Sequence record: PZ386974.1
Length of the DNA: 64,000 nucleotides
Origin: a phage
Strand: one strand, 5' to 3'
The notes under the pieces are model-generated. The model was not told the DNA's origin. It saw nothing but the letters and a program-made list of their open reading frames with translations, and did no database searches. Shown here piece after piece: positions 11,586 to 17,643 of the stretch (the stretch's first letter is position 1; the number at the start of each line of letters is the position of its first letter). The position numbers were made by a program, and so were the translations under genes.

Positions 11586-12584
11586 TTATGATACTAATTC
11601 AATCCATGCAGGACGCAGAACATCTTGCACCATTCGGACTAATTCTTTCTTAACAAGATTCGGATTATCAGATGATGTTAATACAATACCTTCACGAGAA
11701 GTTTCTTCCAGAATATCTTGAACAGTCAATCCCATCACTTTACCAAAATCTTTTGGCGTTACAGTCCCAATCTTAGAAATCACATTATTAATACGATTTA
11801 ATGTAACATAACAAGCTAGAACATCAATCAAGTTTTTGTCAGTTTCGGTTAATGGAACCTGAGTTTTAATAGGCTTATCAGACTTTTTCTTTTCACTGAA
11901 TTTAGAGTTCTTGCACTTAATAGCTACACGAGTACCGTTTGGCAGCCATTTAGGGAAACAGGGCTTCAGAACATAACCTTCTGCCGTATTATCGCCAATA
12001 ACATTAGCATCAAATACGCAATTATTTGCTTCGACAAGGTCTTCCGATGCCGTGGCGTTATAAGCGGCTAAGACGGAATCAAGGTCATTTGGAATCATGA
12101 TAAGAGAATCAAATGTTCCACGTCCAAGCATTGGTGCCATTTTAAAACCGAATTCATTACAGAAATCTTGCATTTCGTAATCGGTCAAATACGTATTATC
12201 ACCACTTTCTGTATTGATAAGGATATCGAACACGTAAAAATCTTTTTCACCGTAGTCAACACCTTTCTGGATTCCACCACCAGCGAATTCACCGAATACT
12301 TGATATGATACGGCTCGAGCTGTGTACATGAATTCCTGAACGGCTTTAATAGCTTTATCATACTTCTTGAGTACGATTTCATAACCATAAAAATCTTCTG
12401 CTGGAAGAATAGGGCCTGTGCGCTTGGCGCATGTGACGTTGTCACGTTCAATTATTAACGAGAAGTTAGTCCCATGGATTTTCTCACGTGCTACCCAAAC
12501 ACCAGTAGTCAAACCATTAGTGTAGAGTTTTTCAATAAACTTAGAGTTGTAGTGGTTTTCAAGACTGCTGTATTTCTTAAACAT
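11586..12584 (-). CDS. rnlB: RNA ligase 2 (Rnl2)
   Basis: 332-aa ORF; N-terminus [21 protein letters not shown] and KIHGTNF lysine-nucleotidyl motif match T4 Rnl2. Confidence 0.95.
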
Positions 12585-13245: not shown

Positions 13246-14664
13246 TTATGGATATGTATAGATGATACCAGTTTCCAAAGCAGTTTTATGGATGATGTAT
13301 CCATTACGTGATTCTTGAACATCAACTTCTGGATAGTCTTTCATCATCTTCTGAAGCGTATAACGATGCAAGTAATACTTACTATCTGGATCTTCAGTTT
13401 TCCAATCTTTACCTTCTTCAGTCATTTTTTGGATTTCATCCATAACCCACCAACCGCACCAGATGTAAGCTGAAGTACGATGTGGAAGAGGATGAACATA
13501 AGGTAATTCACCTTCTGGTTCTGGAGCAACTTTATCGGTTACCTGAACTTGACCTTCTGCTGTAATAGTTTTGCTATCATAATCAGTAGCAGTAACAGAT
13601 GCAGTAACTTCAATAGTTTGACTTCCAATAGATGAGGTATCAACGGTATATACATTAGTTGACCCTTCTACAGGAGAAGAATCTTTCTTCCATGAATACT
13701 CAATTTGCGCTTCTTCTGGAGCATCAGTGACATTAGCGGTAAATGTAGCCGAAGCATCTTGCTGAACGTTAATAGAAGGAGGAGTCAATGTAACCCGTGG
13801 ATTCATTGTCTTCTTATTAACCGTTAATGATACTTCATTCGAAGTAACTTCCTTTGCATCATAATCTGTCGCGGTTACTTGGGCTACACATTTAATTCTT
13901 TTTACTCCACTTGTAGTCGGAGTATAGCTAAATGTAGAGTTAGTTTCTCCACCAACCTGTGAATCATCTACATACCACTGATACGTAGCAGACGCTCCAA
14001 CCGGTTGAGAAGCTAAGGCAGCAGTAAATTGAACTGGGGTTCCAATTACTCCGGCTGAAGGACTATTGGGAGTTACTGCCAACGTAGTTGTCTGTGTCTT
14101 TTTATTAACAGTCAGTGACACTTCATTAGAAGTAACTTCCTTTGCATCATAATCTGTTGCGGTTACTTGAGCCACACACTTAATTCTTTTTACCCCGCTT
14201 TCGGCAGGAGTGTAATTGAACGTAACGTTAGTTGCTTCGCCAACAGGAGAATCGTCTACATACCATTGATAAGTAGCGTTTGCGCCTGATGGCTGCGAAG
14301 CTAAAGCGGCGGTAAATTCAATAGCTGTTCCTATTACTCCAGCGTCAGGGCTATTGGGAGTTACTGCTAAGGTAGTCGTTTGTGTCTTGTTTTGAACTGT
14401 GATAGTTGTAGAAGCTTCTGCTGTTTCAGCTTCAGCTTCTGGAACTGTATTTGTTGCAACTACTTTAATAGTCTTTTGACCGGCAGGTCCTTTTAGTACA
14501 TAACTAAAAGTTGCTTCAGCTCCATCTTGTGGAACATCATCCACAGACCAAGCATATGTAATAGTTCCGCCCCCAGTTTCACCACTGGGTGTAGCATTAA
14601 ACTGCTTAGTCTCATCTATAACTCCAGTAGGTGTTTTAGGAGTTATATCAACTGTAAAAGCCAT
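13246..14664 (-). CDS. hoc: highly immunogenic outer capsid protein Hoc, with extra Ig-like domain
   Basis: 472-aa ORF; N- and C-termini match T4 Hoc (376 aa); contains two tandem ~96-aa Ig-like repeats where T4 has one. Confidence 0.9.
   Translation of the reverse strand: MAFTVDITPKTPTGVIDETKQFNATPSGETGGGTITYAWSVDDVPQDGAEATFSYVLKGPAGQKTIKVVATNTVPEAEAETAEASTTITVQNKTQTTTLAVTPNSPDAGVIGTAIEFTAALASQPSGANATYQWYVDDSPVGEATNVTFNYTPAESGVKRIKCVAQVTATDYDAKEVTSNEVSLTVNKKTQTTTLAVTPNSPSAGVIGTPVQFTAALASQPVGASATYQWYVDDSQVGGETNSTFSYTPTTSGVKRIKCVAQVTATDYDAKEVTSNEVSLTVNKKTMNPRVTLTPPSINVQQDASATFTANVTDAPEEAQIEYSWKKDSSPVEGSTNVYTVDTSSIGSQTIEVTASVTATDYDSKTITAEGQVQVTDKVAPEPEGELPYVHPLPHRTSAYIWCGWWVMDEIQKMTEEGKDWKTEDPDSKYYLHRYTLQKMMKDYPEVDVQESRNGYIIHKTALETGIIYTYP
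13813..14388 (-). repeat. tandem duplication of 288-bp Ig-like domain unit inside hoc
   Basis: two adjacent 96-codon units (14101-14388 and 13813-14100), clearly similar at nt level (identity not computed), encoding KTQTTTLAVTPNSP...SLTVNK. Confidence 0.8.
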
Positions 14665-14673
14665 AAGTTATCC

Positions 14674-15342
14674 TTATTTTAATGTTACGAAAGAAGAATT
14701 ACGAGTTTCACGAATTAGAACTGATCCATCGCGATTAATATAATAAATTAAGCTAAATAATGTTTGGTGAGCAGAAGCATGCACAAAACTAGTTGGACGA
14801 GATTTCCAATCTGGGGTTTCGGCTATCCATTGATAAATCCACCAAGGAACAGTAACATATCCTGGGCCTTTGCCTAATTTAATGAGTGTAGGACTAAAAT
14901 TTTCAGGCAGAACAAATTTTACTTCTTTATTTACCTCTGGCTCAGGCTCTTTTTCAGATTCAACAACCTGAGTAATTGCTTCTTCGAATTTATCATGGTC
15001 GAATTCTTTTTCTTGTTCGACAACTTCTAATACTTCAACTTGTTCTGTTGGAGAATCAAACAACAGAATAGCTTCTTCTTTAACTTCTTCGTTGGTGAAA
15101 TTAACACCGTCCACATCATCTGCGGCAGTAATTAAATCAGTGATAGATAATCCATCAGTTTCAGGTAATGGTTCATCAGCCAGTGCGTTAAGAGCTTCTT
15201 CGATATCAATAACAATATTATCGAATGATTTTGATTTCTTAACACTAATGCCGAATTGTTCCGCATATTCAAACAGTTTAGCTTTGGCTTCCTTTTTATC
15301 AGAAAGAGCACGTAACTCTTCAATATAGTCTTTATCGATCAT
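14674..15342 (-). CDS. inh: inhibitor of prohead protease (Inh)
   Basis: 222-aa acidic ORF directly downstream of hoc, T4 synteny. Confidence 0.8.
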   Translation of the reverse strand: MIDKDYIEELRALSDKKEAKAKLFEYAEQFGISVKKSKSFDNIVIDIEEALNALADEPLPETDGLSITDLITAADDVDGVNFTNEEVKEEAILLFDSPTEQVEVLEVVEQEKEFDHDKFEEAITQVVESEKEPEPEVNKEVKFVLPENFSPTLIKLGKGPGYVTVPWWIYQWIAETPDWKSRPTSFVHASAHQTLFSLIYYINRDGSVLIRETRNSSFVTLK

Positions 15343-15355
15343 GATATTTCCTCAT

Positions 15356-15363
15356 TATAAATA
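15356..15363 (+). promoter_or_regulatory. TATAAATA late-promoter motif upstream of segE
   Basis: exact TATAAATA 17 nt upstream of the MEKSMYHF ATG. Confidence 0.4.
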
Positions 15364-15379
15364 TAACTATATTTATTAC

Positions 15380-16123
15380 ATGGAAAAGAGTATGTATCAC
15401 TTTGTTTATGAGACCGTAAATTTAATCAATGGTAAAAAGTACATTGGCAAACATTCTACAGAAAATTTAAATGATTCGTATCTAGGGTCAGGTGTTGCCT
15501 TAAATCGCGCTATCAAAAAATACGGAGAAGAATCATTTAAACGTTCAATAATTAAACAATTTGAAACTTCCGCTGAAGCTTTAGAATACGAAGCTCAGTT
15601 AGTAACAGAGGATTTGGTCAAATCTAACGAGTATTATAATATGCGCCAAGGCGGTGAAGGTGGAAGGTATAAGTACACCGAAGCTGATAAGACTAAAATG
15701 TCTAATAGTGCTAAAGAACGAATAAAGAGGCTTGGTCATAATCTTTTAGGAAAACACAGATCGGAAGAAACAAAAAGAAAACTATCTGAAACAAATAAAC
15801 GTCGATACTCTGAAGACCCAACATGCCACGGGCGGTATGGTACAGGAAAGCCAAAGATTGATAAAATTAAAGGTCCTAAAAATCCTACAACTCTAAATAA
15901 AATTTGTGTTAACAACGGTAAAGAAAACAGATTTATATCAGCCGAGGACCCGATGCCTGAAGGATTTGTAAAAGGAATGGTCCAACTTAATAGAAAATCT
16001 AGAAAGGGTTGTGAAGTAAAACCTACGACCACCGGCAGAATATGGGTAAATAACGGGGCTATAAATAAATTAGTAAATCCGTTATCCATCCCAGATGGAT
16101 ATGTTAAAGGCCGTTTAAGGTAA
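15380..16123 (+). CDS. segE: GIY-YIG homing endonuclease SegE-like
   Basis: GIY-YIG module (YHFVYETVNLINGKKYIGKHS); same inh-uvsW location as T4 segE; start placed at ATG 15380 not the ORF-track ATG 15341. Confidence 0.8.
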   Translation: MEKSMYHFVYETVNLINGKKYIGKHSTENLNDSYLGSGVALNRAIKKYGEESFKRSIIKQFETSAEALEYEAQLVTEDLVKSNEYYNMRQGGEGGRYKYTEADKTKMSNSAKERIKRLGHNLLGKHRSEETKRKLSETNKRRYSEDPTCHGRYGTGKPKIDKIKGPKNPTTLNKICVNNGKENRFISAEDPMPEGFVKGMVQLNRKSRKGCEVKPTTTGRIWVNNGAINKLVNPLSIPDGYVKGRLR

Positions 16124-16128
16124 TTATT

Positions 16129-17643
16129 ATGACAGATATTAAAGTACATTTTCATGATTTTAGCCATGTAAGAATTGAATGCGACGAAAGCGTGTTCTAT
16201 GAATTACGCGACTTTTTTAGCTTTGAAGCCGATGGGTACAAATTCAACCCGCGTTACAAATATGGGAACTGGGATGGTAGAATTCGACTTTTAGATTACA
16301 ATCGTTTGTTACCATATGGACTTGTAGGACAAATAAAAAAGTTCTGTAACAATATGAGTTATTCTGTATGGATTGACCCTAAAATCTTTGAGACTGAAGA
16401 CCTTACCAGGGAAGATTTTGACGCATGGCTTTCTAAACAAGAAATTTATTCTGGCAACGCCAAAATTGAACCACATTGGTATCAAAAAGATGCAGTATAT
16501 GAAGGACTAGTTAATCGTCGTCGAATTTTAAACCTTCCGACATCAGCAGGTAAATCACTAATCCAAGCACTTTTAGCTCGGTATTATCTAGAGAACTATG
16601 AAGGTAAAATTCTCATTATCGTCCCTACAACGGCATTGACAACTCAGATGGCTAATGATTTTGTTGATTATCGCTTGTTTAGTCATTCGATGATTAAGAA
16701 AATTGGCGGTGGTGCTGATAAAGCGGACAAATCTAAAAACGACGCTCCAATTATTGTTGGCACATGGCAAACGGTAGTTAAGCAGCCTAAAGAATGGTTC
16801 TCTCAGTTCGGTATGATGATGAACGACGAATGCCACTTAGCAACAGGCAAAAGTATTTCTTCAATCATCTCAGGATTAAATAATTGCATGTTTAAATTCG
16901 GTTTATCCGGCTCATTAAGAGACGGAAAAGCCAATGTAATGCAGTATGTAGGCATGTTCGGCGAAATCTTCCGTCCTGTTAGCACGTCTAAATTAATGGA
17001 AGATGGACAGGTAACTGAGCTTAAGATTAATAGTATTTTCCTTCGTTATCCGGACGAATTCACCGTTAAATTAAAAGGTAAAACATACCAAGAAGAAGTT
17101 AAAATTATTACCGGACTAAAACGTCGTACAAAGTGGATTGCTCAACTTTCGGTCAAATTGGCTAAGAAAGACGAGAACGCCTTTGTAATGTTTAAACACG
17201 TTACACACGGTAAAGAAATATTTGAAGCTATTAAAGAGCTTGGATACGAAAAAGTTTATTACGTATCAGGTGAAGTTGATACTGAAACACGTAACGCGCT
17301 TAAAGTCATGGCAGAAAATGGTAAAGGCATTATTATTGTCGCATCATATGGAGTATTCTCTACTGGTATTTCAGTCAAGAATCTTCATCATGTTATTTTC
17401 GCCCATGGTGTTAAATCAAAAATTATCGTACTTCAAACAGTAGGTCGTGTGCTTCGTAAGCATGGTTCTAAAGCTGTTGCTACAGTTTGGGATCTCATCG
17501 ATGACGCAGGTGTAAAACCTAAATCATTAAATACTAAAAAGAAGTATACTCATCTTAATTACTTGTTAAAACACGGTATTGATCGTATCCAGCGTTACGC
17601 TGATGAGAAATTTAACTATGTAATGAAAACAATTAATTTATAA
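16129..17643 (+). CDS. uvsW: UvsW DNA/RNA-DNA helicase
   Basis: 504-aa ORF; SF2 helicase motifs (PTSAGKS Walker A, DECH box). Confidence 0.93.
   Translation: MTDIKVHFHDFSHVRIECDESVFYELRDFFSFEADGYKFNPRYKYGNWDGRIRLLDYNRLLPYGLVGQIKKFCNNMSYSVWIDPKIFETEDLTREDFDAWLSKQEIYSGNAKIEPHWYQKDAVYEGLVNRRRILNLPTSAGKSLIQALLARYYLENYEGKILIIVPTTALTTQMANDFVDYRLFSHSMIKKIGGGADKADKSKNDAPIIVGTWQTVVKQPKEWFSQFGMMMNDECHLATGKSISSIISGLNNCMFKFGLSGSLRDGKANVMQYVGMFGEIFRPVSTSKLMEDGQVTELKINSIFLRYPDEFTVKLKGKTYQEEVKIITGLKRRTKWIAQLSVKLAKKDENAFVMFKHVTHGKEIFEAIKELGYEKVYYVSGEVDTETRNALKVMAENGKGIIIVASYGVFSTGISVKNLHHVIFAHGVKSKIIVLQTVGRVLRKHGSKAVATVWDLIDDAGVKPKSLNTKKKYTHLNYLLKHGIDRIQRYADEKFNYVMKTINL

Follow-up and report, generated by a model that had tools for sequence, protein, structure and literature searches.

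The hoc gene examined here encodes a capsid decoration protein in which four Ig-like modules precede the capsid-binding domain, with the second module of the T4 arrangement (D2) present as two tandem, diverged copies, here designated A and B. It lies in a 64,000-nucleotide stretch of phage sequence (record PZ386974.1), referred to below as the window, which was assigned to Mosigvirus and is 98.4% identical to phage mar005p1 over 25 kb. Taken as a whole, the gene is very probably best explained as a T4-type Ig array carrying an old A+B pair of D2 modules within an RB69-like backbone, and as a copy-number variant made by recombination.

From the ORF list of the window, the hoc coding sequence was placed on the minus strand and comprises 472 codons and a stop. 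A comparison of ORF order found the gene between inh and 24.3/24.2/rnlB, as in the T4 and RB69 annotations; the T4 record gives a Hoc of 376 aa and the gene order rnlB, 24.2, 24.3, hoc, inh, segE, uvsW. The features of the locus are as follows.

13246..14664, minus strand: hoc coding sequence, with modules in the order D1, D2-A, D2-B, D3 and C-terminal capsid-binding domain.
14389..14664, minus strand: Ig-like module D1 (aa 1-92), 88% identical in amino acids to T4 D1 and 60% to RB69 D1.
14101..14388, minus strand: D2 copy A (aa 93-188), of the A-type allele class and additional in comparison with T4; Pfam Ig_2/PKD_4 match at residues 111-177.
13813..14100, minus strand: D2 copy B (aa 189-284), of T4 type; Pfam PKD match at residues 195-253.
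13525..13812, minus strand: Ig-like module D3 (aa 285-380), 84% identical in amino acids to T4 D3; Pfam Ig_3/I-set match at residues 289-373.
13249..13524, minus strand: C-terminal capsid-binding domain (aa 381-472), amino acid-identical to RB69 Hoc from residue 382.
About 13500..14700: T4-type Ig cassette within the RB69-like (Mosigvirus) backbone, mapped by sliding identity in 100-nt bins.

The encoded protein is a Hoc by its C-domain, homologous to T4 Hoc residues ~281-376, its N-terminal string of Ig-like modules and its conserved gene position. Against T4 Hoc (PDB 5vf3_Z, 376 aa) it was aligned in two stretches (E = 1e-221), with query residues 1-109 matching T4 residues 1-109 and query residues 189-472 matching T4 residues 93-376 (572.9 bits for the latter), and it follows from this alignment that exactly one 96-aa unit is extra in the window Hoc. 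T4 Hoc (PDB 5vf3/8t1x; P18056) shares the inh-hoc-24.3 position, and amino acid identity to the window modules is 84-95% for its D1, D2 (the counterpart of copy B) and D3, whereas the window protein has copy A, 83% identical to T4 D2 in amino acids, inserted between D1 and the T4-like D2. Copy B matches T4 domain 2 at 264 of 288 nucleotides and 91 of 96 residues, compared with 221 of 288 and 80 of 96 for copy A. The C-domain was found to be near-identical in amino acids to T4 Hoc residues 285-376 in the alignment to 5vf3_Z, and its DNA is 97.8% identical to that of RB69 (query positions 1147-1419).

The Pfam families PKD, Ig_2, PKD_3 and PKD_4 exceeded their cut-offs in the window Hoc, and PKD/Ig-type matches were present on copies A and B alike. 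An AlphaFold2 model computed with 45 homologues as input contained four consecutive beta-sandwich modules with a pLDDT of about 90 across residues 1-380, including a beta-strand module at D1 (pLDDT 87-93), and a C-domain modelled with low confidence (pLDDT 31-65). When the model was searched against the PDB with Foldseek, the best matches were the four-Ig proteins Dscam1 Ig1-4, ICAM-5 D1-D4 and Sidekick Ig1-4 (E ~1e-13). The calculated mass and pI are 50.8 kDa and 4.52 for the window Hoc and 40.4 kDa and 4.74 for T4 Hoc.

At the nucleotide level, two repeat finders agreed on a 288-nt in-frame tandem direct repeat within hoc, with 2.0 copies at 78-79% identity and a TRF score of 735. Copies A and B match at 226 of 288 nucleotides and 83 of 96 residues. 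When copy A was compared with all other 288-nt windows on both strands of the 64 kb, matches averaged 74.3 (sd 8.5) and reached 116 in the next best window; the binomial probability of the A/B match by chance is about 1e-76. The amino acid differences between the copies are confined to unit residues 15-63, mainly positions 15, 22-24, 34, 37 and 48-63, so that the copies agree completely over the first 14 and the last 33 residues. Stretches of peptide specific to copy A include the region with SPVGEATNVTFNYTPAESGVK. Within the Hoc family, 15 of the 26 most variable D2 columns lie outside the predicted strands; the variable D2 positions are 12, 15, 22-24, 34, 46-55, 62-64 and 78-84. It was also noted that the module boundaries have a common microhomology, AAGACA with GTTnAnAA before it, which could have mediated the original out-of-register exchange.

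An earlier note on this DNA, made from the letters alone, had described a Hoc of 472 aa against 376 aa in T4, lengthened by one Ig-like module of about 96 aa, and the ORF list, the T4 record and the 5vf3_Z alignment agree with it on both counts. The repeat reported by the repeat finders lies exactly where the note had placed its adjacent units (14101-14388 and 13813-14100), the copy downstream in the protein is indeed the T4-like one and the upstream copy the more diverged, and the domain searches and the structural model bear out the Ig-like nature of both. Its description of the substitutions as only scattered holds for the protein but not for the DNA, where the copies differ at 62 of 288 positions and 43 of the 62 differences fall at third codon positions.

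We then considered the age of the two copies using Nei-Gojobori estimates of dS and dN. For A versus B, dS was 1.24, dN 0.093 and dN/dS 0.075, which puts synonymous divergence between the copies close to saturation (dS ~1.2). The corresponding values were 0.24, 0.043 and 0.176 for copy B versus T4 D2, 0.27, 0.068 and 0.252 for D1 versus T4 D1, and 0.33, 0.115 and 0.349 for D3 versus T4 D3. The bias toward third positions, together with this dS, indicates that A and B are old rather than freshly duplicated. Because the dS of 1.24 between A and B stands against 0.24-0.33 for the window and T4 modules, the A/B split is much older than the divergence of T4-type hoc alleles. The A/B dN/dS of about 0.08 further shows that both copies are under purifying selection, which keeps A and B functional.

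To place the gene among its relatives, the window hoc was compared by megablast with 50,697 phage records, of which 659 matched. Among the best-ranked 40 of these 659, a collinear 1419-nt gene was found in 36, and the closest match was the hoc of vB_EQ1 (PQ516281), with 99.2% nucleotide identity. An even sample of 60 of the 659 records contained the 1419-nt gene in 16, a 1131-nt gene in 35 (1117 nt in T2) and an 852-nt gene in two; the 16 of 60 translate into a four-Ig frequency of about 27% of matching records, which is an estimate from 60 records evenly spaced down the ranking and not a full count. A comparable picture was obtained from protein clusters drawn from a collection of 5.8 billion proteins, where the best 120 clusters comprised 80 of 376 aa, one of 377 aa, 30 of 468-472 aa, eight of 568-570 aa and one of 567 aa. 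The 30 clusters of 468-472 aa among these 120 hold approximately 444 member sequences by the sum of their listed counts. A scan of IMG/VR for DNA of hoc alleles returned only 21 loci, few of them close.

The two-copy A-B gene was encountered in both Tequatrovirus, in teqskov (NC_054934) and HP3 (NC_041919), and Mosigvirus, in moskry (MN850651), mar005p1 (OZ035759) and pEB20. The 472-aa Hocs of these and other deposited phages, including vB_EQ1, share the architecture of the window protein, with A followed by B and 89-99.2% nucleotide identity across the gene, and differ from it by allelic substitutions only. The moskry record carries an annotated repeat_region inside hoc. The rarity that the earlier note had implied is thus contradicted, since a Hoc with four Ig modules is widespread both in close relatives and across two genera, and RB69 Hoc has four as well; the note had itself allowed that finding this state in close relatives would lower the novelty of the observation, and the comparison of Hoc lengths across the sampled records gave that result.

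Among the nearest relatives at the genome level, record spans indicated two copies in mar005p1, Ec3-ASingh and pEK20, and one copy in NicPhage, p000y, JM17, NBG1, LF82-41 and KMB38, whose spans are about 290 nt shorter. A neighbouring SegE-like gene is absent in some relatives with a 472-aa Hoc. No association between this neighbour and hoc copy number was found among four phages, as mar005p1 has two copies and the seg gene, NicPhage one copy and the seg gene, and vB_EQ1 and moskry two copies without it.

The diversity of the D2 module was assessed from 165 units excised from 120 proteins. In the two-copy genes (468-472 aa), the first copy was nearer to window A in 29 of 30 and the second nearer to window B in 29 of 30. 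The two classes were also recognized by motif, with an A-type PV[GSD]EA in the first copy and a B-type Q[VI]GGE in the second, and the window copies define both types. Genes with three D2 copies have the order A-B-B', and among the single-copy genes D2 was B-like in 59, including T4, and A-like in 22. At the DNA level, copy A resembles the sole D2 of ChristianSchoenbein (93.7% nucleotide identity), RB18 (92%) and Yersinia phage PST (89.6%), and since an A-type unit serves as the only D2 in these phages, copy A is no degenerate spare. Judged by their sequences, both copies represent old versions of one and the same module.

Relatives of the window Hoc form a series of two, three, four and five Ig modules, corresponding to 283, 376, 472 and 568-570 aa. 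The longest proteins (UGKSEcP1/UGKSEcP2 type) have the T4-type modules and C-domain of the window Hoc and differ from it in carrying three D2 copies, A-B-B'. The 283-aa Hocs of BYEP01 and PNJ-9 likewise have T4-type modules and the same C-domain but differ by the loss of D3, which was deleted with the end of D2 joined to the end of D3. NicPhage shares 98.2% identity with the window across 25 kb and has one D2. Of the 62 sites at which A and B differ, the first four in this D2 are of A type (AAAA) and nearly all the others of B type, so that an A head is joined to a B body; the flanking parts of its hoc are 96-98% identical to the window. The D2 of ChristianSchoenbein is A nearly throughout and B at the last seven informative sites (an A body with a B tail), and the proteins P0079 and P0099 are A/B chimeras at the protein level. 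The A-type, B-type and A-to-B chimeric single-copy modules fit what would be expected from unequal recombination between modules. Unequal crossover of A with B in a gene like that of the window, with the exchange falling in the conserved head (unit nt 22-38) or tail (nt 193-288), would yield both the NicPhage and the ChristianSchoenbein arrangement. The remark of the earlier note that the repeat is a recombination substrate gains backing from these chimeric alleles and from the two- to five-module series.

The relation of the array to its genomic surroundings was examined through sliding identity. Compared with RB69, the flanks (inh, the hoc C-domain, 24.3, 24.2 and rnlB) are mostly 95-100% identical at the nucleotide level, with a few bins near 90%, while the Ig array reaches only 45-74%. 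The comparison with T4 gave the reverse, with 52-78% in the flanks and 86-96% across the Ig array (~13500-14660), apart from one bin at 73%; the hoc C-domain, at 91-96% to T4, lies above the other flanks in this comparison. RB69-like flanks around a T4-like array identify the array as a cassette of T4 type set into an RB69-like backbone; the breakpoints fall at the start of the gene and where D3 meets the C-domain. RB69 Hoc (AAP76093; 471 aa) resembles the window Hoc in its four Ig-like modules, which are collinear module by module, in a C-domain identical in amino acids from residue 382 and in flanking genes of 95-100% nucleotide identity. It differs in its Ig modules, which reach only 39-60% amino acid identity and form a separate cassette, and in that its extra module, R_3, is not the A/B duplicate. 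RB69 module 2 is 53% identical to A and 54% to B in amino acids, and RB69 module 3 is 41% and 39% identical to them, respectively. On these identities the window Hoc is not a four-Ig protein of the RB69 type, as its extra module is not orthologous to RB69 module 3.

Several other origins of the extra module were weighed. Tandem repeats are liable to mis-assembly, and an assembler might have written one D2 module twice; this is extremely improbable, because copies that differ at 62 of 288 nucleotides lead reads neither to collapse nor to expand, both copies are in frame with a dN/dS of 0.075, and the A-B arrangement occurs in many independently sequenced phages, including the 99.2%-identical vB_EQ1. 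An artefact was accordingly rejected on the 22% nucleotide distance between the copies, the selection on both and the recurrence of the arrangement in independent genomes. A recent duplication in place, unique to the window phage or its immediate clade, would agree with the single copy seen in most of the closest relatives at the genome level (NicPhage, p000y, JM17, NBG1, LF82-41 and KMB38). It is nevertheless highly unlikely and was rejected on the A/B dS of about 1.2, against 0.24-0.33 for the window and T4 hoc modules, and on the spread of the A-B form over two genera; A-type units also stand as the sole D2 in RB18, ChristianSchoenbein and PST. Synonymous divergence and purifying selection between A and B together exclude both the artefact and the recent duplication. 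Inheritance of the fourth module from a Mosigvirus ancestor has in its favor the RB69-like backbone of the window and a 471-aa RB69 Hoc that is collinear module for module, but A and B are co-orthologous to RB69 module 2 (53% and 54%) and have just 39-41% identity to module 3, and nucleotide identity over the Ig array is 45-74% to RB69 as against 86-96% to T4. Descent from the RB69 four-Ig Hoc is therefore very improbable, and it was rejected on the matrix of module identities and the nucleotide mosaic.

The direction of change in copy number is a separate matter. It is possible, and we put it forward tentatively, that an array of two or more D2 copies is the older state and that the three-Ig Hoc of T4 and many relatives derives from it through deletion by unequal crossover, in which case T4 would have lost a module rather than the window phage gaining one. 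The single-copy alleles of NicPhage and ChristianSchoenbein are A-to-B ordered chimeras at the DNA level, as P0079 and P0099 are among proteins, deletion within a tandem repeat is mechanistically easier than duplication, and the D3 loss in BYEP01 shows that module deletion has happened. However, old single-copy alleles that merely have their D1- and D3-facing edges in common with two-copy alleles predict the identical pattern, and the head/tail test of informative sites is inherently symmetric between duplication and deletion, with A-head/B-tail chimeras equally expected from either history. Single-copy forms are moreover in the majority (80 of the best 120 clusters and 35 of the 60 sampled records), and RB69 R_2 is equidistant from A (53%) and B (54%), so it provides no outgroup polarization. 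A further reading, which seems rather unlikely, takes A and B as two ancient D2 classes that selection keeps in the population, shuffled by unequal and homologous recombination into arrays of one to three copies and moved as whole arrays between genera; its basis is the A/B dS of about 1.2 against about 0.3 for the rest of hoc. Were it true, Hoc would carry an adhesin cassette of variable copy number, driven by recombination, through which the length of the capsid fibre and its glycan specificity are matched to the niche, and A-B tandems would be bivalent for two different ligands.

Under the favored explanation, a recombination-made variant of a T4-type array in an RB69-like backbone, the A-then-B hoc would be one state within a copy-number polymorphism of two, three, four or five Ig modules that is widespread in T-even Hoc. 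These states most likely arise, and change into one another, when modules recombine homologously but out of register during co-infection. Entire Ig arrays would additionally pass between phage genera through ordinary recombination that breaks at the gene start and the D3/C-domain boundary.

In T4, one Hoc monomer binds at the centre of each gp23* hexamer through its C-terminal domain, giving 155 per capsid, and its three Ig-like domains form a fibre of ~180 angstroms (PMC10385173, PMC9958956). The protein is acidic and dispensable, and affects virion dispersal as well as adhesion to bacterial and mucosal surfaces (PMC10385173, PMC9958956). The Ig-like domains of T4 Hoc bind mucin or fucosylated glycans, and a single Ig-domain substitution alters glycan binding and mucus persistence (PMC9271167). 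The conserved C-domain suggests that the window Hoc likewise binds the gp23* hexamer, and would seat one Hoc per hexamer as in T4. The extra module would lengthen the projecting fibre, ~18 nm in T4, by about one Ig domain or ~4 nm. As an added binding module, copy A may also supply a second, sequence-distinct D2 surface for adhesion to glycans or cell surfaces.

Variation in the number of Ig-like domains in Hoc has been described in general terms. A search with the Hoc C-domain by Fokine et al. 2023 returned 650 homologues, most with strings of Ig-like domains, ranging from one domain in Enterobacter phage PG7 to ten in Serratia phage Muldoon (PMC10385173). Those homologues resemble the window Hoc in combining a conserved capsid-binding domain with an Ig string of variable number, but they are distant homologues, whereas the variation seen here lies between nearly identical alleles and comes from tandem copies of a single module. 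Literature searches on T4-type Hoc yielded no explicit description of D2 tandem copy number; what they did yield was the general remark that Ig number varies (Fokine 2023). Public four-Ig entries are labelled Hoc or PKD-domain protein, and the repeat is marked in at least one record. As the allele is present in hundreds of public sequences and a variable Ig number has been published, the finding is already known and ordinary, and the discovery value of the four-Ig allele is small. The deep A/B dimorphism, the two- to five-module series among near-identical alleles and the exchange of cassettes between genera may be under-described.

Because Hoc serves as the display and vaccine scaffold of T4 and as the model for bacteriophage adherence to mucus (BAM), natural versions with two, three, four and five Ig modules built from interchangeable units are worth knowing. 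Such natural variants offer material for tests of the influence of fibre length and module identity on adhesion. The natural four-Ig Hoc indicates that the fibre tolerates insertion of a module at the D1/D2 boundary.

The Ig array of the window hoc gene (~13500-14700) is a T4-type cassette carried within an RB69-like Mosigvirus backbone. Relative to RB69, the flanks of the array were 95-100% identical, whereas the array itself was only 45-74% identical, and the comparison with T4 gave the opposite pattern. It was noted that identity switched sharply at the start of the hoc gene and at the boundary between D3 and the C-terminal domain.

Two neighboring genes were also noted.

15341-16123, + strand: SegE-like GIY-YIG homing endonuclease ORF, between inh and uvsW (Pfam)
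11586-12584: rnlB (RNA ligase 2), single intact 332-aa ORF

The SegE-like ORF matched the Pfam families SegE_GIY-YIG, GIY-YIG, and, weakly, NUMOD3. It occupies the same position as T4 SegE with 49% amino acid identity, differing by an insertion of ~51 aa, and translation probably begins at M14 (15380) or M18 (15392). Copies of at least 99% were found in only 11 phage records. Both mar005p1 and NicPhage carry the gene at 100% identity, and it is missing from vB_EQ1 and moskry, leaving a gap at ~15400-16200 in window coordinates; among these four relatives, its presence did not track hoc copy number. In vB_EQ1, the closest hoc relative, the rnlB counterpart is annotated as two CDS (record L003, 5081-6080), and this split suggests a frameshift or sequencing error.

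Across 165 D2 units, most of the variation was held in a few short patches, with the remaining columns almost invariant.

Unit positions 12, 15, 22-24, 34, 46-55, 62-64, 78-84: variable D2 patches, in both window copies (A and B)

Comparison of the 165 units revealed mosaic recombination among them in these patches, with alternatives such as PV[GSD]EA vs Q[VI]GGE vs LVDGE and TDYDAKE vs ENYNEKE vs DYDALS.

Whole modules were also found to vary. Three tandem D2 copies (A-B-B') were present in the 568-570-aa Hoc proteins of the UGKSEcP1/UGKSEcP2 type (P0001-P0008), and another Hoc (P0091) was a 567-aa chimera in which a T4-type D1 and an A-type D2 are followed by RB69-type modules 2-4. A Hoc of 283 aa, missing the third Ig module, was encountered in Escherichia phage BYEP01 (OR757453; L029 601-1452) and in PNJ-9. 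At its junction, the end of D2 runs in frame into that of D3 (…SLTVN/DKVAPEPE…), a fusion that makes this Hoc a two-Ig member of the module series.
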